Origin: Deltaproteobacteria bacterium
GTDB lineage: Bacteria > Desulfobacterota > Binatia > UBA1149 > CAYXZP01
Assembly: GCA_046583395.1 (NCBI GenBank)
Contig: JAYGCK010000090.1
Coordinates: 1-58,055, forward strand
Reading direction: 5' to 3'
Length of the DNA: 58,055 nucleotides
Part shown: one piece after another, positions 1,562 through 18,403 of the stretch
Numbering within the stretch: the first letter of the stretch is position 1
Layout of the letters: every line of letters starts with the position of its first letter
Translations under genes and position numbers: made by a program
Notes under the pieces: generated by a model
Databases searched by the model: none
Seen by the model: the letters and a program-made list of their open reading frames with translations, nothing else
What the model was told of the DNA's origin: nothing

Positions 1562-3274
1562 GTGATGCAAGCCGCGACAAGAGGTCTACTGCTCGCCACC
1601 GTGGCAGCCTTTCTGGTGGCCGCCACGGCCACTCAGGCACCTGCCAACCCCTACGTGCTCGGACTGAAATGTGCGTCAGCTAAGCTTAAGGCGGCGGGCA
1701 AGGACTGCATGTGTCGGCACAAAGCGTTGGCAAAAGCAGTGGCCAAAAGCGTCGCCGCAGATTTCGGAAAATGTGCGCCCAAAATTACTAAAGATTTCAA
1801 CAAGGCCGATGTCAAAGGACAGGGGTGGTGCCGCACGGAAGGCGACAGTCAGGCGGTCGATCAGCGAATCGATAACTTCTGCTCAACTGTCAACACAGCG
1901 CTGGTCCCGGCCGGGGACCTCAGTAAGGGCGCCCGCAAGTGCGCAAGCAAGAAGATCAAAGCGGCGGGCAAGCTATGCATGTGCCTCCACAAAGGCCTCT
2001 CAAAAGCTACGATCAAAGGTCTGACCCCTGATTATGCCAAGTGCCAATCCAAATACGCTGCTGCCTTTGCCAAGACCGAAGCCAAGAGCGCCTGCGCCAC
2101 CAATGGCGACACAACGACGGTTGAGGCCCTGATAGACGCCGGCTTCGCCGAGGTTGAGGCCGACCTGCTCGACCTGGGAACCGACGATTTCGCAACACGT
2201 GGCGACTACGGGGTAGGGCATCTAACCCTGGAACTCGTCGACGACACCCGCACGACCCAGGCCAGCGGCTCCCTGCCCGAACTCCCGTCGCGCACGCTGC
2301 CCACCCAAATCTGGTATCCGGCCGATGCGCCGGTATATGTGGACCAACGAGAGGACGCGGCACTGGTAGATGAGGCCAAGAGCTACCCGCTCATAATACG
2401 TTCCCACGGCTTCGGCGGCACGAACATCGACTCGATGGACCTCACCCGCCACCTGGCAAGCCACGGCTACATAGTGGTGGCCCCGACCTTCCCGCTATCG
2501 AACCTCTTCACGCCGGCCGACGCCATGACGCTCCTCGACATTGACGAGCAGGCGCGCGACGTCAGCTTCCTCATCGACACGGTGCTCGGCTGGAACAACG
2601 ATCCCGACCACCTCTTCTACGGCCGCGTGGACAGCAGCCGGATAGGCGCCACCGGCCATTCGCTGGGCGGGGCGACCTCGCTTCTTGCCGGGTTTCACTC
2701 CGAGGTCAGCGATGACCGCATAGAAGCGGTCGTGGCGCTGGCCCCACTGGCCTGTGTTTTTGACGAGGCGATGTATGACTCTGCATCGATCCCTCTCCTG
2801 ATCATGGGCGGCACCGAGGACATGATAACGCCGGTGACGAGCAACGCGGTCATCCCCTACCAGAGGGCCAACCCAATCAAGTACCTGATGCTCATCGAGG
2901 AGGGCACCCACATCGGCTTTGCCAACCTCCTCATAAGCGACCCGGACGCCAACGGCGACGAGGAGCTTTTCTGCGCGCCGCAGTTCCCGCCCGGCAGCCA
3001 GCGGCCCAGTACCGTAGGCATCACGATCCCGGATGACTATCTCGGGGGCGCAGCCACCGGCATCGATACGACGGCGTCGATCTGCGAACCGATCTGCCCG
3101 CTGCCGCCAGACTCGACCATGAACCACAATGTGCAGCAGGAGCTGGTGCAGGCCGGCACGCTGGCCTTCTTCGACTACATACTCGACAGCAACGTGCCGG
3201 CCCGCCGCCTACTTCAGTCGCGCTTGGTCGCCGAGAACGAGTCCGTATCGATGAGCTACGAAGAGGCCGAGTAG
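1562..3274 (+). CDS. Secreted alpha/beta hydrolase (PAF-acetylhydrolase/dienelactone hydrolase-like) with N-terminal tandem Cys/Lys-rich repeats
   Basis: Signal peptide; WYPA, SHGFGG, LASHGYIVVAP, nucleophile GHSLGG, candidate Asp (GTEDMI) and His (EGTHIGF); two CASxKxKAAGKxCMCxHK repeats at the N-terminus. Confidence 0.85.
   Translation: MMQAATRGLLLATVAAFLVAATATQAPANPYVLGLKCASAKLKAAGKDCMCRHKALAKAVAKSVAADFGKCAPKITKDFNKADVKGQGWCRTEGDSQAVDQRIDNFCSTVNTALVPAGDLSKGARKCASKKIKAAGKLCMCLHKGLSKATIKGLTPDYAKCQSKYAAAFAKTEAKSACATNGDTTTVEALIDAGFAEVEADLLDLGTDDFATRGDYGVGHLTLELVDDTRTTQASGSLPELPSRTLPTQIWYPADAPVYVDQREDAALVDEAKSYPLIIRSHGFGGTNIDSMDLTRHLASHGYIVVAPTFPLSNLFTPADAMTLLDIDEQARDVSFLIDTVLGWNNDPDHLFYGRVDSSRIGATGHSLGGATSLLAGFHSEVSDDRIEAVVALAPLACVFDEAMYDSASIPLLIMGGTEDMITPVTSNAVIPYQRANPIKYLMLIEEGTHIGFANLLISDPDANGDEELFCAPQFPPGSQRPSTVGITIPDDYLGGAATGIDTTASICEPICPLPPDSTMNHNVQQELVQAGTLAFFDYILDSNVPARRLLQSRLVAENESVSMSYEEAE
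1670..2135 (+). repeat. Two tandem Cys/Lys/Ala-rich protein repeats (period about 90 aa)
   Basis: CASAKLKAAGKDCMCRHKALAKA...KC...F.K.....C.T.GD versus CASKKIKAAGKLCMCLHKGLSKA...KC...F.K....C.T.GD. Confidence 0.85.
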
Positions 3275-4074
3275 TCCCAGACCATACGGTGCTCGCCGGC
3301 CTCGCCGAGCAGCTCGGCCGGGTTCTTCCTGTCCACGTGGCCGATGAGGCTGTTGTAGACGCCGTAACCGACAAGCTCCCGCAAGCGGGGGGAAAAGCCC
3401 CGCACCGTCTCTCGCGGAACGCCGAGCTGCTGGTTCTCCTGCTGGCGGATGAAACCGGCGCAATAGTTCATGGCGATTCCCACGCGGCGCTCTTGCGAGC
3501 GGTTGGCGCCCCCACCGTGCCAAAGGCTTCCGTGCCAGACCAGCACGCTGCCACGCGACATCTCGCAGGCCACGCTGTCATAATGACTGCTGTACTCGGG
3601 CGATGTCCCTGACTTGTGGGAGCCGGGAACGACGCGGGTCGCGCCGTTGTCCTCGCTAAAATCGGTCAGCGCCCACATGGTGTTACAGATGATCGCCGGA
3701 TGGGGCTTGGGCAAGGGTATCAGTTGGTCGTCGGCATGGATGGGCTGGGCCGTCTCGTCCGGGTTGATGGAGATAGACGACAAGGACGAGATGAGACAGC
3801 CATCGTCGAGCACCCCCTCTACCACCGGCAGGACGGCCTCGTGGACGGGGATGGCCTCGTAGAGACGCCCGTGGGCCAGAAGGTTGTAGATACGAACGGT
3901 GTGCTCGCCCTCAAAATCGTTCTTGATCGGAACCCTCTCTAGGTCGCGCTCAAGACGGAGCAGGTCATCGGTCAAGGCATCGAGCAGGCCGGGCTCGACC
4001 GCCCCCTCGATGACCGTATAGCCGTCCCGCTCTATGCGGGACAGGTGCGCTTCAATCTGCTTCGGCTCCGGCAA
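3256..4074 (-). CDS. Phytanoyl-CoA dioxygenase (PhyH) family Fe(II)/2-oxoglutarate oxygenase
   Basis: HxD in QPIHADD, WALTDFS..NGATRVVPGSH, distal His in LWHGGGANRS..RR, RQQENQ. Confidence 0.9.
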   Translation of the reverse strand: MPEPKQIEAHLSRIERDGYTVIEGAVEPGLLDALTDDLLRLERDLERVPIKNDFEGEHTVRIYNLLAHGRLYEAIPVHEAVLPVVEGVLDDGCLISSLSSISINPDETAQPIHADDQLIPLPKPHPAIICNTMWALTDFSEDNGATRVVPGSHKSGTSPEYSSHYDSVACEMSRGSVLVWHGSLWHGGGANRSQERRVGIAMNYCAGFIRQQENQQLGVPRETVRGFSPRLRELVGYGVYNSLIGHVDRKNPAELLGEAGEHRMVWDYSASS

Positions 4075-4747
4075 GGTGGTCCGCTATGGCCCGTTCCCAT
4101 TCCTCGGGCATGAACATGACCGGGCCTATTCCGCCCTGGTAGGCGACCTGGCCACGGCTATCGACAAGGTAGAGCCGCTCGGGCAGCGCGTTGTAGGCTT
4201 TCATCACCTCGTCGTTCATCTCATCGACCAGCACGGTCGGTTCTAGTTCAAGCCCGAGCGAGCAGGCCTGGGCGACCTCGGTGCGTTCTTCCATAGAACG
4301 GTGCTGGCGGTAGATGATGTCGTCGGTCTCGTTGTGAGAGACCTGCCACCCGTCGCTCGAATGTATCTCTCTGATATAGACGGCGTAAAAATCGACACGG
4401 TCACGATAGGTCCGGTAAATCTCGTTCAGGCGCCCCGCCGAGGCGCGAAAAGGAGGTCAAGTGTAACTGCCGAAGATGAGGGCCACCGGGCGCTTGCCGA
4501 AATGGTCGGACAAGCGAACGCTGCCACCACCATCGACCCGAGGCAGACAGAAGTCGGGCGCCTCGGTGCCCGGCCCGCAGGACCCGGGCTCGCGCTCGAG
4601 CATCTCGCTCACATGCTCGATCGCCAGCGGGTGGCTCATCACCTCGGCCATCTCTTCGGTCGATATCAAAGGTTCGGGACCGTCGGCACTCGCAGCGCGC
4701 TCGGCCATGATGGAGGCTACGAGGGCTTGGACATTTTCTTGGTTCAT
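4052..4747 (-). CDS. Iodothyronine deiodinase-like selenoprotein (231 aa, Sec97 from in-frame TGA at 4457-4459)
   Basis: Manual translation through the TGA is open and joins two ORFs: APDFCL...RPVALIFGSYT-U-PPFRASAGRLNEIYRTYRDRVDFYAVYIREIHSSDGW...LVDEMNDEVMKAYNALPERLYLV...GGIGP. This matches deiodinase motifs FGSxTUPPF, YIxEAHxSDGW and AxPERLY. Confidence 0.92.
4430..4446 (-). promoter_or_regulatory. Putative bacterial SECIS hairpin
   Basis: GCGCCUC-GGC-GGGGCGC stem-loop beginning at the 11th nt after the UGA, with G in the apical loop. Confidence 0.65.
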
Positions 4748-4781
4748 TCGGGCCACGGACAAACCTAAACCCCCGGCGGCC

Positions 4782-5546
4782 TCAACACGAGCCGGCCGAG
4801 ACCGCGTCATCAACGGTATATACCGCGCCGTTGACGTAGGAGGCCTCGTCGGAGGCCAGGAACAAGATGACCGCAGCGACCTCGTCGACCGTCCCCATAC
4901 GACCGCCGGGAAGCCGTTGGCTAAGCTCCTCGCGGCCGCCTGGCAACATGTCAGCCCAGGCCAGCATCGGTGGCGTGGCAATGGTACCCGGACATACGCA
5001 GTTGACCCTGAGACCGCTGGCGGCCCCTTCGAGCGCAGCCGTGCGGGTAAGATGCATGACTGCGGCCTTGGCCGCCCCATATGCGGACAGACCGGGCTCA
5101 CCGCCGAGCCCGGCGGCCGAAGAGATGTTTATCACCGAGCCCGACCCCTGTTCGGACATCACCCGCATAGCGGCGCGGACCCCGTAGAATACCCCGTCGA
5201 GGGTGACCGACATGACCTCGCGCCAGGTCTCATCACTGGTGTCGCCTATCGGTCCGCCGGTCGAACAGGCCGCATTGTTGACCATGACGTCCAAGCGCCC
5301 GTAACGCGACACCGCCTCGCCGACCACTTGGTCGACGGTCTGCGAGAGCGAGACATCACCGACCAATGTCGAAGCGGCCCCACCGGCAGCGGTGATATCG
5401 GCGGCGGCCTGGCCGGCCCGGTCGGCCTCACGATCATTGACCAACACCTGCGCACCCTCGGCTGCAAAGGCCAGGGCCGCGGCGCGGCCTATACCGGAAC
5501 CGGCGCCGGTTATGGCAACGACCTTGTTGGTAAAACGGGTGCTCAA
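4782..5546 (-). CDS. Short-chain dehydrogenase/reductase (SDR)
   Basis: [15 protein letters not shown], YxxxK (YGAAK), RVNCVCPG. Confidence 0.92.
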
Positions 5547-6523
5547 GAGGCCCGGGCGCGTTCGGTGGGCGCGCTCATCGGCCTTAGGCCGGCGGCCTCA
5601 AGCATGGCCTCGTCGGCCAGGTGGTCGGGATTGCCGGTGGTCAGCAGTTTGTCACCATAGAAGATTGAGTTGGCGCCGGCCAGGAAGCAGAGCATCTGGC
5701 TTTCCTCGCTCATCTCGGTGCGCCCGGCCGACAAACGAACCACAGAGGCCGGCATCATGATACGTGCGGTGGCCACCATCCGGACCATCTCCATGGCAGC
5801 CACAGGTTCGCAGTCGGCCAGAGGCGTGCCCTCGACCGCGACCAATGCGTTTATCGGAACACTTTCGGGATGACGCGGCTGCGTGGCCAGTTCTACCAGC
5901 ATCGCGCAACGGTCGTCGGTGCTTTCGCCCATGCCGATTATGCCACCCGAACAAACGGTGACGCCGGCATCACGGACATGGGTCAGAGTGTCCAAGCGGT
6001 CCTGATACTGGCGGGTGGTGATTATCTCACCGTAGAACTCCGGCGAGGTATCCAAATTGTGGTTGTAGGCCGTCAGCCCGGCCTCGCCCAAGCGGCGGGC
6101 CTGCTCGGCGGTCAACATGCCAAGGGTCACGCAGGCCTCCATCCCAAGGCCCCTCACGCCACGGACCATTTCGAGCACCGAATCGAACTCGGCTCCGTCA
6201 CGGACCTCGCGCCAGGCCGCGCCCATACAGAACCGGCTCGCTCCGGCCTCGCGGGCCAACGCGGCCTTGGACAGGACGTCGGGCACATCCATGAGTTTCT
6301 CGGCCTCGACCCCGGTCTGGTAGTGGGCAGATTGCGGACAATAGGCGCAATCCTCCGGGCAGGCACCGGTTTTTATCGACAGCAGGGAACAGAGCTGCAC
6401 TTCGGCAGGGTCATGGTGAACCCGGTGCAGGGCCTGGGCCCGGAAGATCAGGTCCGGAAGGGGCAGATCGTGAAGCTCACGGGCCTGCGCGGTGGTCCAG
6501 TCGTGACGTATCTCGTCGGCCAT
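5543..6523 (-). CDS. bioB: Biotin synthase
   Basis: [11 protein letters not shown] radical SAM motif, [42 protein letters not shown]. Confidence 0.97.
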
Positions 6524-8088: not shown

Positions 8089-8838
8089 CTAGCGGAACAG
8101 ATCGTCCTCGGGCGGGCGGATCATGTCCCGGGCCCGGCCCTTGCCCGACTGGTAAGCAAAACCCCGAACCAGCACTGCCGGAATGCCATCGGCCTTGCCC
8201 ATGACCATCCCTGCGGCCCCGGCCAACTGGTCGGCAACCGCGACCACTGTGTGCTCGAGCCGGCGCCCGCCACGGTCGAGCCCGCCGCCCAGGTCACGTA
8301 ACACCTCGATACCGGCGGCACCGATGGCCAGGTCTATCTGGCCCAGCCGCCAAGGCCGCCCGAAGGTATCGGACACCACCACGGCCAACTGCTGCCCGAA
8401 ATGGGCCATCAAGGAATCTCGCAGGGAGGCCGCCGAACGGTCGGCGTCCTCGGGAAGGAGGGTGACCTCGTCATCGCCAGCCTGGTTGGAACGGTCGATG
8501 GCCGAGTTAGCACCGACCCAGCCCGGCCCGGTCGCGGTGATAAGATGGCCGTCGCGCATACGCAGGACCTCACGGGCTTCTTTAAGGGCAAGCTCGACCA
8601 GCGGTGGGTCCTTGTCATGACTGCCGGCAAACTCGAGCGCCCGCTCGGAAGGTTCAACATCCGACAGCCTGACCACACGGCCCTCGGCCTTGGAGACGAC
8701 CTTCTGGCAGACAACGACAACGTCGTTCTCGTTGATTCCGACCCGGGAGCTTTCCAGCGCCTCGATGATCTGCTCGGCCAGATCGTCGCCCTCAGCGACT
8801 TCGGGGATTCCCTCGATGGGTATTAGTACGGTAACCAT
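8089..8838 (-). CDS. cofE: Coenzyme F420-0:L-glutamate ligase
   Basis: GIPEV..GDDLA, QKVVSKAEGR, ANSAIDRSN, LLPEDAD.SA, DTFGRPWR.GQ, DQLA.AA.MVMGK, P..DLFR. No C-terminal nitroreductase (FbiB) domain. Confidence 0.95.
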   Translation of the reverse strand: MVTVLIPIEGIPEVAEGDDLAEQIIEALESSRVGINENDVVVVCQKVVSKAEGRVVRLSDVEPSERALEFAGSHDKDPPLVELALKEAREVLRMRDGHLITATGPGWVGANSAIDRSNQAGDDEVTLLPEDADRSAASLRDSLMAHFGQQLAVVVSDTFGRPWRLGQIDLAIGAAGIEVLRDLGGGLDRGGRRLEHTVVAVADQLAGAAGMVMGKADGIPAVLVRGFAYQSGKGRARDMIRPPEDDLFR

Positions 8839-8839
8839 T

Positions 8840-9775
8840 TCAGCTGTCCTGAGTCACAAGCTCTAACATGAACTTGGCCAATCGGCGGGCACGACCGACA
8901 TCACCGATCAATGTGTCGTGCTCGACAAGCTCGGGCCAACCCGGCTGCCGGCGCGAGGGCAGGTCGCCGGGGGCGACCACCAAGTGACCGGCCAGCCCCC
9001 GGTAGAACTCCGCGATGGCCGCGGTCCCACGGCCAAGCGACATCGACCGTAGCATTGCCGGAAGCGGACCCTTTACCGAGCGGCCACCGATGAGAGGACT
9101 GACTGCCACCACTCGCGAACGCGCCCGCCGGAGTGCCTGACGTATACCGGGTACGGTCAGCATCGGTGCGATGCTGACCAAGGGATTGCTGGGGGCGATG
9201 ACCACCGTCTTGGCCCGGGCAATGGCGCTAAGAACACCGGGGGCGGGGCGGGCACGAAGCGCCCCCGTAAAGCTCAGCCGCAAGACCTTGGGCCGGGCCC
9301 GCTCGCGCACAAGGTAGTGCTGGAAACTGAGCCGTCCCCGGTCGGTCACGGCCACGGTCCTGACCCTGTCGTCGCTCATCGGCAGCACCCGGGCCCGAAC
9401 CCCCCGCGCCTTGCAAATATCGCTGGTCACCTGGCTCAGCCGGCGTCCTCGGCCGAGCTGTTGGGTACGAAAGATATGGGTGGCCAGGTCGCGGTCACCG
9501 AGATTGAACCAGGCATCCTGGCCGGTCAGAACCTCGAGCTCGGCAAGGGCCGTAAAGCGGTCGCGGGCTATGCCCCAGCCGGTCCTGCGCGAGGCCATGC
9601 CGGCCAAGGTATAAACGATGGTATCTAGGTCGGGTGAGACCGACAGGCCGTAGAACTCGTCGTCATCGCCGGTGTTGACGATGACCGTAAGGTTCTCCGG
9701 GTCAGTTAAGCGTGCCAGTCCGCGCAGGAGCTTGGCTGCTCCCACGCCACCGGCCAGCATCGTAATGCCCGCCAC
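8840..9775 (-). CDS. cofD: 2-phospho-L-lactate/phosphoenolpyruvate transferase
   Basis: LAGGVGAAK, IVNTGDD, SPDLDT..YTLAG, WFNLGDRDLATH, LPMSDD, FQHYLV, PSNPLVSI. GTG 9775 with GGAGAGG SD. Confidence 0.95.
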   Translation of the reverse strand: MAGITMLAGGVGAAKLLRGLARLTDPENLTVIVNTGDDDEFYGLSVSPDLDTIVYTLAGMASRRTGWGIARDRFTALAELEVLTGQDAWFNLGDRDLATHIFRTQQLGRGRRLSQVTSDICKARGVRARVLPMSDDRVRTVAVTDRGRLSFQHYLVRERARPKVLRLSFTGALRARPAPGVLSAIARAKTVVIAPSNPLVSIAPMLTVPGIRQALRRARSRVVAVSPLIGGRSVKGPLPAMLRSMSLGRGTAAIAEFYRGLAGHLVVAPGDLPSRRQPGWPELVEHDTLIGDVGRARRLAKFMLELVTQDS

Positions 9776-10976
9776 CGTCCTCTCCCGGAGCACCGGTACC
9801 GTCGAGATGACCGTACAGGGTGTTGCGTTGTTGCGGTATGCGTCCCATCCGCGTGACCATCGCGCGTAGCTCCTCGACCGAGGTGTACTCGCCGGCATCT
9901 GCGCCGGCCTCGCGCGATATGCTCTCTTCCATCAGGGTCCCGCCAACATCGTTACAGCCGGCGGCCAAGGAGAGCGCGGCCAGTTCGTGGCCGAGCTTGA
10001 CCCAGGAGGTCTGCAAATTGTCGATAAGCCCACGCAACATCAGACGGCTGGTCGCGTAAACGGCCATATCGAGCTGCCCCTGCGGTATCGGCCGGACCCG
10101 GCCCTCGCGATAAAGCACGGTGTTCTGCCAGATGAACCTCAAGGGCACGAACTCCGTAAACCCTCCGGTCTCGGCCTGGAGCCGGCGCAAGAGGTCTATG
10201 TGACGGGCCACATGCAGCGGTGTTTCTATATGCCCGTACATCACCGTCGATGTGGTTGGCAGCCCCAGCTCATGGGCGGTACGGATAATCTCGGTCCAGT
10301 TGGCCACATCGAGCTTCTTGTGGCTTAGAATCTCGCGGACCTCGTCGTCGAGGATTTCGGCCGCGGTACCGGGCATGCTGCCCAGACCGGCCTCCATCAA
10401 CAGAGATATGAACTCGCGATAACCAAGCCGCATGCGGCGGGCACCGTACATCACCTCCATCGGAGAGAATGCGTGTATGTGGGTATCTGGGAAGGCCTCG
10501 TGTACCGCGCGCAGAATCTGCAGATATCCGTCATCGGGCATCTCGGGGTTGAGTCCGCCCTGCATGCATATCTCGGTGGCACCCCGTTCGATGCCCTGCT
10601 CGATGCGGCCCAGCACATTGTCCATGTCGTGCTCGTAGGCCTCTTCGTCTCCCTTTAGGTGGGCAAAGGCACAGAACTTACAGCCCACGAAACAGACGTT
10701 GGTCCAGTTTACGTTGCGGTTGACGACATAGGTCACTACCGGCCCGACATCGTCGGCCCTTATCCGGTCGGCCGTGGCGACCAGGGCCGAAAGCTCTTTG
10801 CCGCGTGTGTCAAGAAGCCTGACGGACTCTTCGACCGAGGGGCGGGTGCCGCCTAGCGCACGCTCGAGAATGCCCGCAAGGCCGGGGCTGACCGCGCCAA
10901 TCCGCTGCTCGAGACTGCGCTCATCGGTGAGCAAGAAGTCGACGTTGTCGGCGTTGGTCTCGGTCTCATAACTCAT
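9702..10976 (-). CDS. cofH: FO synthase subunit 2 (radical SAM)
   Basis: VTYVVNRNVNWTNVCxxxCxxCAF, TEICMQGG, HAFSPME, SMPGTAAEILDD, GGFTEFVPL, SWVKLG, NDVGGTLMEESISR.AG. Confidence 0.95.
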   Translation of the reverse strand: MSYETETNADNVDFLLTDERSLEQRIGAVSPGLAGILERALGGTRPSVEESVRLLDTRGKELSALVATADRIRADDVGPVVTYVVNRNVNWTNVCFVGCKFCAFAHLKGDEEAYEHDMDNVLGRIEQGIERGATEICMQGGLNPEMPDDGYLQILRAVHEAFPDTHIHAFSPMEVMYGARRMRLGYREFISLLMEAGLGSMPGTAAEILDDEVREILSHKKLDVANWTEIIRTAHELGLPTTSTVMYGHIETPLHVARHIDLLRRLQAETGGFTEFVPLRFIWQNTVLYREGRVRPIPQGQLDMAVYATSRLMLRGLIDNLQTSWVKLGHELAALSLAAGCNDVGGTLMEESISREAGADAGEYTSVEELRAMVTRMGRIPQQRNTLYGHLDGTGAPGEDGGGHYDAGRWRGSSQAPARTGTLN

Positions 10977-12136
10977 GATGCGCTGGCCTCTAGCCGCGTG
11001 TCACTTCTGGCCGCGACGGCCTCGGTCATGGCCGGCGCCATGAACTCATCGTTTAGGAACTCATCATAGACCGGCAGGCGAGGGACAAGCTCGAAGCCTT
11101 CCTCGCCACAGGTCTCGGCCAGGCGGTCGATGTGCGGCCAGGGCGCCTCGGGGTTAACGTAGTCCATTGTAAGAGGGGAGATGCCTCCCCAATCGTTTAT
11201 GCCCGCATGGATGAGCCGGCGGTGTGCGGCCGGGCTAAGATTTGGAGGAGCCTGCAGGCTGGTCTCTTCGCCCAAAATAAGCCGTGCGATGGCCACGCTG
11301 CGCACCATCTCGTCATCACCGGGCTCGGAGGCCTCCGACATACCGGTCTCGGGCTTGGCGCGAAAGTTCTGGACGATGACCTCTTGGATATGTCCGTAGC
11401 GGCGGTGTAGGCCGCGTATCGCGAGCAAACTGGCAATGCGCTCGGCCTCGGTCTCGCCGATGCCGATAAGGATACCGGTGGTAAAGGGGATACGCAGCTG
11501 GCCAGCCTCCTCGATCATTTGCAGTCTGGCCGACGGTTCTTTGTCGGGCGCCCAGGCGTGCGGCATGCCGCGGCCGCGAAGGCGAGGGCTGATGTTCTCC
11601 AGCATCAGGCCCATGCTCACGTTGAGCGGGCGCAGCATGGCCATCTCGTCCTTGCTGAGCAACCCGGCGTTGGTGTGCGGGAGTAAGCCCTCGTCGAGCG
11701 CCAGCCTACAGGCCAACGCGACATACTCGGCGGTTGAATTGCAGCCATACGACCCCAAGAGGTCTTTGAAGCCACGGAAGGCGACCTCGGGCTTGTCGCC
11801 CAAACACATTAGCGCCTCTATGCAGCCGAGACGGCGTCCGCGCACCGACCAATCGCTTATCTCGGCCGGGCTCATCGTCCACTCACCGGGCTGTCCGGGG
11901 TCGCGGCGGAAGGTGCAGTAGGTGCAACGGTCGCGACAGAGATTGGTGACCGGCAAGAAGACCTTGGGCGAATATGTCAGTGTCGTTGGCCAGCGACGGT
12001 CGCGCACGGCGGCGGCGGCGGCCAGCAGTTCGTCGGTACGGTCTGCCTCTATCTGAGTGAGCGTGTAGGCCTCGTTGTCGGAAAGGCCCTTGCCCGACCG
12101 GGCCTGTTGCAGGGCTAGTCTAGCCGGGTCGGTCAT
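10973..12136 (-). CDS. cofG: FO synthase subunit 1 (radical SAM)
   Basis: TYSPKVFLPVTNLCRDRCTYCTF, LLPHTNAG, SMGLMLE, PFTTGILIGIGE, HIQEVIVQNF, QAPPNL, GINDWGGISP, NPEAPWP. Confidence 0.95.
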   Translation of the reverse strand: MTDPARLALQQARSGKGLSDNEAYTLTQIEADRTDELLAAAAAVRDRRWPTTLTYSPKVFLPVTNLCRDRCTYCTFRRDPGQPGEWTMSPAEISDWSVRGRRLGCIEALMCLGDKPEVAFRGFKDLLGSYGCNSTAEYVALACRLALDEGLLPHTNAGLLSKDEMAMLRPLNVSMGLMLENISPRLRGRGMPHAWAPDKEPSARLQMIEEAGQLRIPFTTGILIGIGETEAERIASLLAIRGLHRRYGHIQEVIVQNFRAKPETGMSEASEPGDDEMVRSVAIARLILGEETSLQAPPNLSPAAHRRLIHAGINDWGGISPLTMDYVNPEAPWPHIDRLAETCGEEGFELVPRLPVYDEFLNDEFMAPAMTEAVAARSDTRLEASAS

Positions 12137-18326: not shown

Positions 18327-18403
18327 GGCGAGGTAGCTCAGGTGGTTAGAGCGAGGGTCTCATAATCCCTAGGTCGTGAGTTCGAGTCTCACCTTCGCCT
18401 CCA
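18327..18403 (+). tRNA. tRNA-Met(CAT), probably elongator
   Basis: GGCGAGG/CTTCGCC acceptor with G1:C72 paired (so not initiator); anticodon loop CTCATAA; T-loop TTCGAGT; encoded CCA. Ile2 not strictly excluded. Confidence 0.92.

Follow-up and report, generated by a model that had tools for sequence, protein, structure and literature searches.

A bacterial deiodinase-like selenoprotein gene concealed by an in-frame TGA

The locus, its reading frame and its family

A 58,055-nucleotide stretch of DNA, contig JAYGCK010000090.1 of the Deltaproteobacteria bacterium assembly GCA_046583395.1 (the window, at its full length), carries on its minus strand a gene for a deiodinase-like protein that is interrupted by a TGA codon at the position of the catalytic selenocysteine (Sec) of the iodothyronine deiodinases (Table 1). 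An initial annotation, made from the sequence without database searches, had proposed that two open reading frames (ORFs) form one frame running through this codon. This reading holds: from ATG 4747-4745 to TGA 4054-4052 the sole internal stop is TGA 4459-4457 (codon 97), and the downstream text is as quoted there. Translation table 11 gives two ORFs in the same frame instead, 4457..5101, which ends FGSYT, and 4052..4294 (80 amino acids). Read through, the frame encodes 231 residues, the 97th of which is Sec. The start at ATG 4747 agrees with the N-termini of orthologues; in-frame alternatives lie 18 nt (TTG) and 9 nt (GTG) upstream. Public gene calls split the relatives in the same way, into N-terminal fragments ending FGSYT and C-terminal fragments beginning right after the TGA, as had been anticipated for standard annotation. 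Ordinary annotation halves the gene because the selenocysteine codon resembles a stop.

Table 1. Features of the deiodinase-like locus and adjoining genes (positions in the window).
Feature	Position	Strand	Remarks
CDS, deiodinase-like selenoprotein	4052..4747	minus	231 codons including Sec97, plus stop TGA 4052-4054
In-frame UGA read as selenocysteine, Sec97	4457..4459	minus	catalytic Sec/Cys column of Dio3 and Dio2
Upper stem-loop of the selenocysteine insertion sequence (SECIS), predicted	4430..4446	minus	5' arm 4446-4440, loop GGC 4439-4437, 3' arm 4436-4430
Cys162 codon, candidate resolving cysteine	4262..4264	minus	Cys in 80/81 sequences
bioB (biotin synthase)	5543-6523	minus	upstream of SDR
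SDR	4782-5546	minus	between bioB and the deiodinase-like gene
PhyH-type dioxygenase	3256-4074	minus	start overlaps the stop of the deiodinase-like gene

The read-through protein matches the Pfam model T4_deiodinase (PF00837) with 111.3 bits (cut-off 27, E = 5.8e-32) over residues 56-217, so that the match runs across the TGA. The AhpC-TSA model (PF00578) also scores above its cut-off (39.3 bits; cut-off 26), 72 bits under the PF00837 score, and Redoxin scores slightly below its Pfam cut-off. Among PDB sequences the best match is mouse Dio3 (4tr3, E = 3.3e-25); mouse Dio2 (9h48) matches with E = 4.9e-18, each over about 150 residues. In both alignments the Sec columns coincide, residue 97 falling on the Cys that replaces Sec in the crystallised mutants. 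The TGA thus sits where the initial annotation had placed it, at the deiodinase catalytic position, and the deiodinase block reported downstream was found as YIxExHxxDGW. An AlphaFold2 model built on a 53-row alignment (mean pLDDT 92.2, pTM 0.89) returned 4tr3 at the top of a Foldseek search (E = 2.5e-14, TM 0.78, 36% identity) together with 9h48 (TM 0.80), followed by DsbE/ResA/TlpA-like oxidoreductases and, lower, by peroxiredoxins. The 55-residue N-terminal extension, particular to the window copy, is modelled as three amphipathic or charged helices. No transmembrane segment was detected in the protein by hydropathy (maximum over 19 residues, 0.83). It is a soluble, probably cytoplasmic protein that belongs to the deiodinase-like selenoproteins of bacteria (PF00837).

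The gene is newly detected; the family has been known since 2005, when it was reported from the Sargasso Sea with four Sec and six Cys sequences (Zhang, Fomenko and Gladyshev, PMC1088965). Its authors proposed a redox role rather than deiodination, because thyroid hormones were not expected in bacteria. An analysis of the Global Ocean Sampling data counted 22 sequences with Sec and 21 homologues with Cys (PMC2398784), and reviews of 2022 and 2026 include the family among prokaryotic selenoproteins, the tables of both giving its motif as UxxC (PMC9312934, PMC13188914). In contrast, position +3 from Sec holds Phe in 78, Tyr in 3 and Cys in none of 81 sequences, namely the window and the best 80 of at least 585 related loci found by scanning one genome per GTDB species; this set underlies the residue counts below that are given over 81 sequences. 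The family is large: of cluster representatives at 50% identity, 3,985 match with E ≤ 1e-10 and 667 with E ≤ 1e-30. With its members, as described in these papers, the window protein shares PF00837, Sec at the catalytic column, a downstream SECIS, Cys homologues and marine occurrence. It differs in no defining feature; the N-terminal extension and the gene order bioB-SDR-DIO-PhyH are specific to this copy. The earlier statement that bacterial deiodinase-like selenoproteins are known, without an established substrate, is in line with this record. In the literature searched, with subscription journals outside it, we found neither experiments on a bacterial member nor a substrate for one, and no discussion of a resolving cysteine.

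Probable selenocysteine decoding at codon 97

A search of 40 other genomes yielded 12 matches at E ≤ 1e-30 in 11 genomes, each of the 12 holding exactly one TGA; weaker matches were mostly short and to other thioredoxin-fold proteins. Eleven of the 12 matches were readable, and in all 11 of these loci (12 rows with the window) the sequence FGSYT, TGA, PPF stands at the same column. When homologues were aligned at this column, as the initial annotation had suggested, 78 of the best 80 GTDB loci, drawn from many phyla, showed TGA and the other 2 showed Cys. Two of the gene segments (L044 and L049) are letter-identical to those of two genomes from the same order as the window (G007 and G016). In a library set of 153 domain rows from the 150 best representatives, 135 rows have Cys at the catalytic column. 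The nearest titled relative is a metagenome-assembled genome named 'uncultured Myxococcales', at 83% identity. The codon itself was also covered by contigs of sequencing runs X1, X2 and X13, from three studies, which show no other letter at 4457-4459, one of them possibly being the source sample; TGC or TGT, which had been named as a sign against read-through, was not seen in them. Coverage by run X4 was limited to 4823-4886, outside the codon. The stretch is present in marine, seawater and hydrothermal-vent metagenomes from 11 studies.

A 7-bp stem begins 10 nt past the UGA, within the reading frame, and is predicted to be the upper part of a SECIS. Over 12 sequences, 86.9% of the alignment cells of the stem are paired, compared with 39-57% when the partners are slid, and in 6 of the 7 pairs both partners have changed. 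Over 79 sequences the corresponding values are 76.1% and 31-51%; here double changes number 115, where shuffles average 40, and the covariation score is 0.50 (0.155 in shuffles); none of 500 shuffles reached either value. Simply counting the pairs that have at least one double change (6) does not discriminate, since 354 of the 500 shuffles reach that figure. A bulged variant of the stem was rejected (77.4% of cells paired vs 86.9% for the plain 7-bp stem). The predicted element resembles the fdhF-type SECIS of E. coli in forming a stem-loop within the coding region immediately past the UGA, its small apical loop containing a conserved G; it differs in being unrelated in sequence, with 7 bp, a 3-nt loop and a 10-nt spacer here. 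The minimal fdhF element has an 11-nt spacer. Conservation of the loop G (column 27) is 90% or more, and the 2005 report (PMC1088965) gives such a G as a bacterial SECIS feature; judged from its sequence, the hairpin has this feature, with its stem just past the UGA.

The genome of the window (98.68% complete, 131 contigs) contains what the initial annotation had implied in supposing that the organism decodes Sec. A tRNA-Sec gene scored 66.3 bits (cut-off 47) and was called tRNA-SeC with anticodon TCA by ARAGORN, and selA (558.8 bits), selB (369.6 bits) and selD (367.9 bits), all above curated cut-offs, are adjacent on one strand of a single contig (C75:8429-12690). The selD frame has an in-frame TGA of its own, giving a Sec-containing SelD (U30), and the genome holds at least four TGA-Sec candidates. 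Two DsbA-like frames (PF01323; C131:18434-18838 and C112:43411-43965) have one in-frame TGA each, in a U-x-x-C arrangement. The tRNAs of the window itself are tRNA-Leu (anticodon TAA) and tRNA-Met, at 1403-1488 and 18327-18403; the tRNA-Leu is a sub-threshold match to the tRNA-Sec model within the window (38.9 bits).

Were the TGA a true stop, the locus would hold a pseudogene or two small genes. The two table 11 ORFs and the fragments emitted by public callers for relatives would then be correct as they stand, and the hairpin of the window taken by itself is not significant; but the TGA column is kept in the 11 loci and in 78 of the 80, with the protein conserved on both sides, the hairpin covaries, the full Sec machinery is encoded in the genome, and homologues have Cys at this very column. 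We regard this alternative as very improbable. That the TGA is read as Trp or Gly through another genetic code, or is an assembly error for TGC or TGT, we hold to be extremely improbable. Some public predictions print W at the column (P0003, P0004, P0012), and therefore the callers applied a TGA=W code to such contigs; against a general reassignment, TGA is the commonest stop of the genome, closing 409 of the 792 open frames that are 400 codons or longer, and it terminates 9 of 12 neighbouring Pfam-positive ORFs as well as the gene itself. We conclude that TGA is not reassigned here; an assembly error, for its part, is contradicted by the contigs of the three runs described above. The gene almost certainly encodes a real Sec-decoded deiodinase-like protein.

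Active-site residues and gene neighbourhood

The proton-relay residues of Dio2 listed in PMC11592359 (Ser127, Thr129, Tyr157, Glu160, His162 and His182, with Trp167) correspond in the bacterial protein to Ser94, Thr96, Tyr124, Glu127, His129 and His149, with Trp134. Glu127, His129, Tyr124 and, in addition, Arg191 are invariant in the 81 sequences; Thr96 (80), Ser94 (79) and Trp134 (75) are nearly so. The thioredoxin/peroxiredoxin fold with the deiodinase-specific insertion and the position of Sec are likewise shared with the animal enzymes. Unlike these, the bacterial protein has no N-terminal membrane anchor; the proximal Cys (Dio3 Cys168) is replaced by Tyr95, the distal Cys (Dio3 Cys239, Dio2 Cys205) by Pro170, and the carboxylate clamp (Dio3 Arg275, Dio2 Lys241) by Ile207, in a column that is variable among the 81 (most often P 23, A 20, M 11, R 7, E 6, I 4). 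Dio3 Phe258 corresponds to an invariant Pro189, and the bacterial SECIS lies within the ORF, whereas that of animals lies in the 3' untranslated region. Measured strictly against DIO1-3, the protein therefore has the fold, the insertion and the relay, and lacks the anchor, the clamp and the proximal and distal cysteines.

A further difference is the near-invariant extra Cys162, a column occupied by Leu in both mouse enzymes, 7 (Dio3) or 10 (Dio2) residues before the distal Cys. In the sole exception among the 81 sequences this Cys is shifted by one residue. The AlphaFold2 model places Cys162 near the C-terminal end of helix 152-165. In the library set, a Cys at or one residue from this column accompanies the catalytic Cys in 115 of 135 rows, compared with 3 of 15 rows with a non-redox catalytic residue (S, A, D, L or R) and 1 of 3 rows printed with W; because kin are not independent, this coupling is a trend and not a test. 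From this conservation it appears somewhat probable that Cys162 is the resolving residue.

Of 11 relatives' loci from the same order as the window, 6 have bioB immediately upstream in the same orientation; the SDR gene separates it from the deiodinase-like gene in the window and in one genome (G001). The bioB adjacency may be inherited synteny only. A PhyH gene lies downstream in 2 of the 11 loci (G001 and G008) besides the window. Across the GTDB loci, neighbours were lineage-specific: dienelactone hydrolase in seven Chloroflexota loci, TauD in three alphaproteobacterial loci and SelA once. A dioxygenase of the Fe(II)/2-oxoglutarate type thus adjoins the gene in two distant lineages (PhyH in one, TauD in the other). 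The window also contains, at 1562-3274 on the plus strand, an ORF for a dienelactone hydrolase-like alpha/beta-hydrolase, a kind of gene that is also the neighbour in Chloroflexota; its N-terminal part is rich in Lys and Cys, with a stretch of about 100 residues present twice. Further away, 8089-12136 on the minus strand is a run of coenzyme F420 biosynthesis genes, with a CofE-like gene (F420_ligase), CofD, a CofH-like gene and another radical-SAM gene. Such genes are unusual outside Actinomycetota, archaea and Chloroflexota.

Proposed catalysis, its alternatives and its meaning

We consider it very probable that the locus as a whole is explained by a bacterial deiodinase-like selenoprotein with Sec decoding at UGA97, and we propose catalysis of the following kind. 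By analogy with bacterial Sec biology, the hairpin 10 nt downstream would recruit SelB with Sec-tRNA(Sec), and UGA97 would be recoded. The selenolate of Sec97, placed at the N-terminus of helix alpha-1 in the thioredoxin/peroxiredoxin fold, would attack an electrophilic atom of a small substrate, with the deiodinase proton relay retained in Ser94, Thr96, Tyr124, Glu127, His129, Trp134 and His149. The oxidised selenium would then be resolved by Cys162 as a selenenylsulfide, which a thioredoxin-type reductant would reduce. A two-residue cycle of this type, Sec97 with Cys162, is not found in animal deiodinases.

As substrate we tentatively put forward a halogenated phenolic compound, undergoing deiodinase-like reductive dehalogenation, though with less than even confidence; a hydroperoxide or a disulfide is possible but on the unlikely side, and the remaining likelihood falls to something else. 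Thyroid hormone is unlikely, because the clamp for thyronines is missing and because of the argument of the 2005 authors (PMC1088965). A more specific proposal would make the family Se-dependent reductive dehalogenases of small halogenated phenolics such as the bromo- and iodophenols and halotyrosine-like metabolites that occur in sea water and soil, in which Sec97 abstracts the halogen, Cys162 resolves and thioredoxin reduces; this we offer as speculation, improbable in its full form.

The chief competing explanation for the chemistry is that the protein is a Sec-dependent peroxidase or thiol-disulfide oxidoreductase of the peroxiredoxin/TlpA kind, its deiodinase features being structural heritage. 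It has much in common with peroxiredoxins and with TlpA, ResA and DsbE, namely the thioredoxin fold, the N-terminal beta-hairpin module and a nucleophile that starts helix alpha-1, and the supra-threshold AhpC-TSA match, the Redoxin score just short of its cut-off and the order of structural matches after Dio3 and Dio2 all fit such a role. Sec paired with a distant Cys is what would be expected of an atypical 2-Cys peroxiredoxin. The peroxiredoxin active-site motif is PxxxT/SxxC, and Ser94, three residues before Sec, stands where its Thr or Ser would be, Arg191 being invariant as well; the Pro of this motif, however, seven residues before Sec97, is Leu90 here. A redox function was also what the 2005 paper favoured (PMC1088965). 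On the other hand, the PF00837 score lies far above those of the peroxiredoxin models, as do the structural scores for deiodinases, no CxxC is present, and the protein has the deiodinase-specific insertion together with Glu127 and His129 in 81 of 81 sequences, which PMC11592359 treats as deiodinase features. We therefore judge a peroxidase or oxidoreductase function unlikely, though well within consideration.

Several observations weigh against the preferred reading, that of a Sec-decoded deiodinase-like enzyme with a Sec97/Cys162 cycle. Folded by itself, the hairpin of the window (63 nt past the UGA) reaches -15.5 kcal/mol with a z score of 0.09, and 105 of 200 shuffles are as good; it is the comparative data that argue for a SECIS, as the single-sequence fold is no better than shuffles, and the relatedness among the sequences inflates the shuffle tests. 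Below the 7-bp stem, the minimum-energy fold has two lower stems that other sequences do not keep: columns 15-41, for instance, pair in 10 of 79 and columns 12-44 in 20 of 79. Scanning 4300-4520 against Rfam at E ≤ 10 returned three matches at chance level, none of them SECIS-related. His149 is present in only 26 of the 81 sequences and Pro takes this place in 50, so that conservation of the deiodinase relay across the family is incomplete. The role suggested for Cys162 derives from conservation, and 20 of the 135 Cys-form rows have no Cys162. No partner gene was common across phyla among 150 neighbour ORFs at the 80 loci; these ORFs were picked by a crude longest-ORF rule, and some may be wrong. 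Of 71 long homologues, 35 are fused to EF-hand and 13 to TPR domains (the EF-hand fusion is already in print), which is uninformative for the chemistry, and RNA runs, in which at most 0.07 of the words of the stretch are present, bear on expression neither way.

The corrected annotation recovers a hidden selenoprotein gene in a family many of whose members are filed publicly as fragments. Because this gene and many of its relatives are entered as two fragments each, metabolic readings of such marine genomes miss a selenoenzyme. With the relay retained, the thyronine clamp and the cysteines of the animal enzymes missing and Cys162 conserved, the residue comparison provides a testable Sec97/Cys162 hypothesis for an orphan family. 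If the dehalogenase proposal were true, a family of thousands of sequence clusters, orphaned for twenty years, would gain its first substrate and mechanism, and the chemistry of thyroid-hormone deiodination would originate in bacterial organohalogen metabolism.

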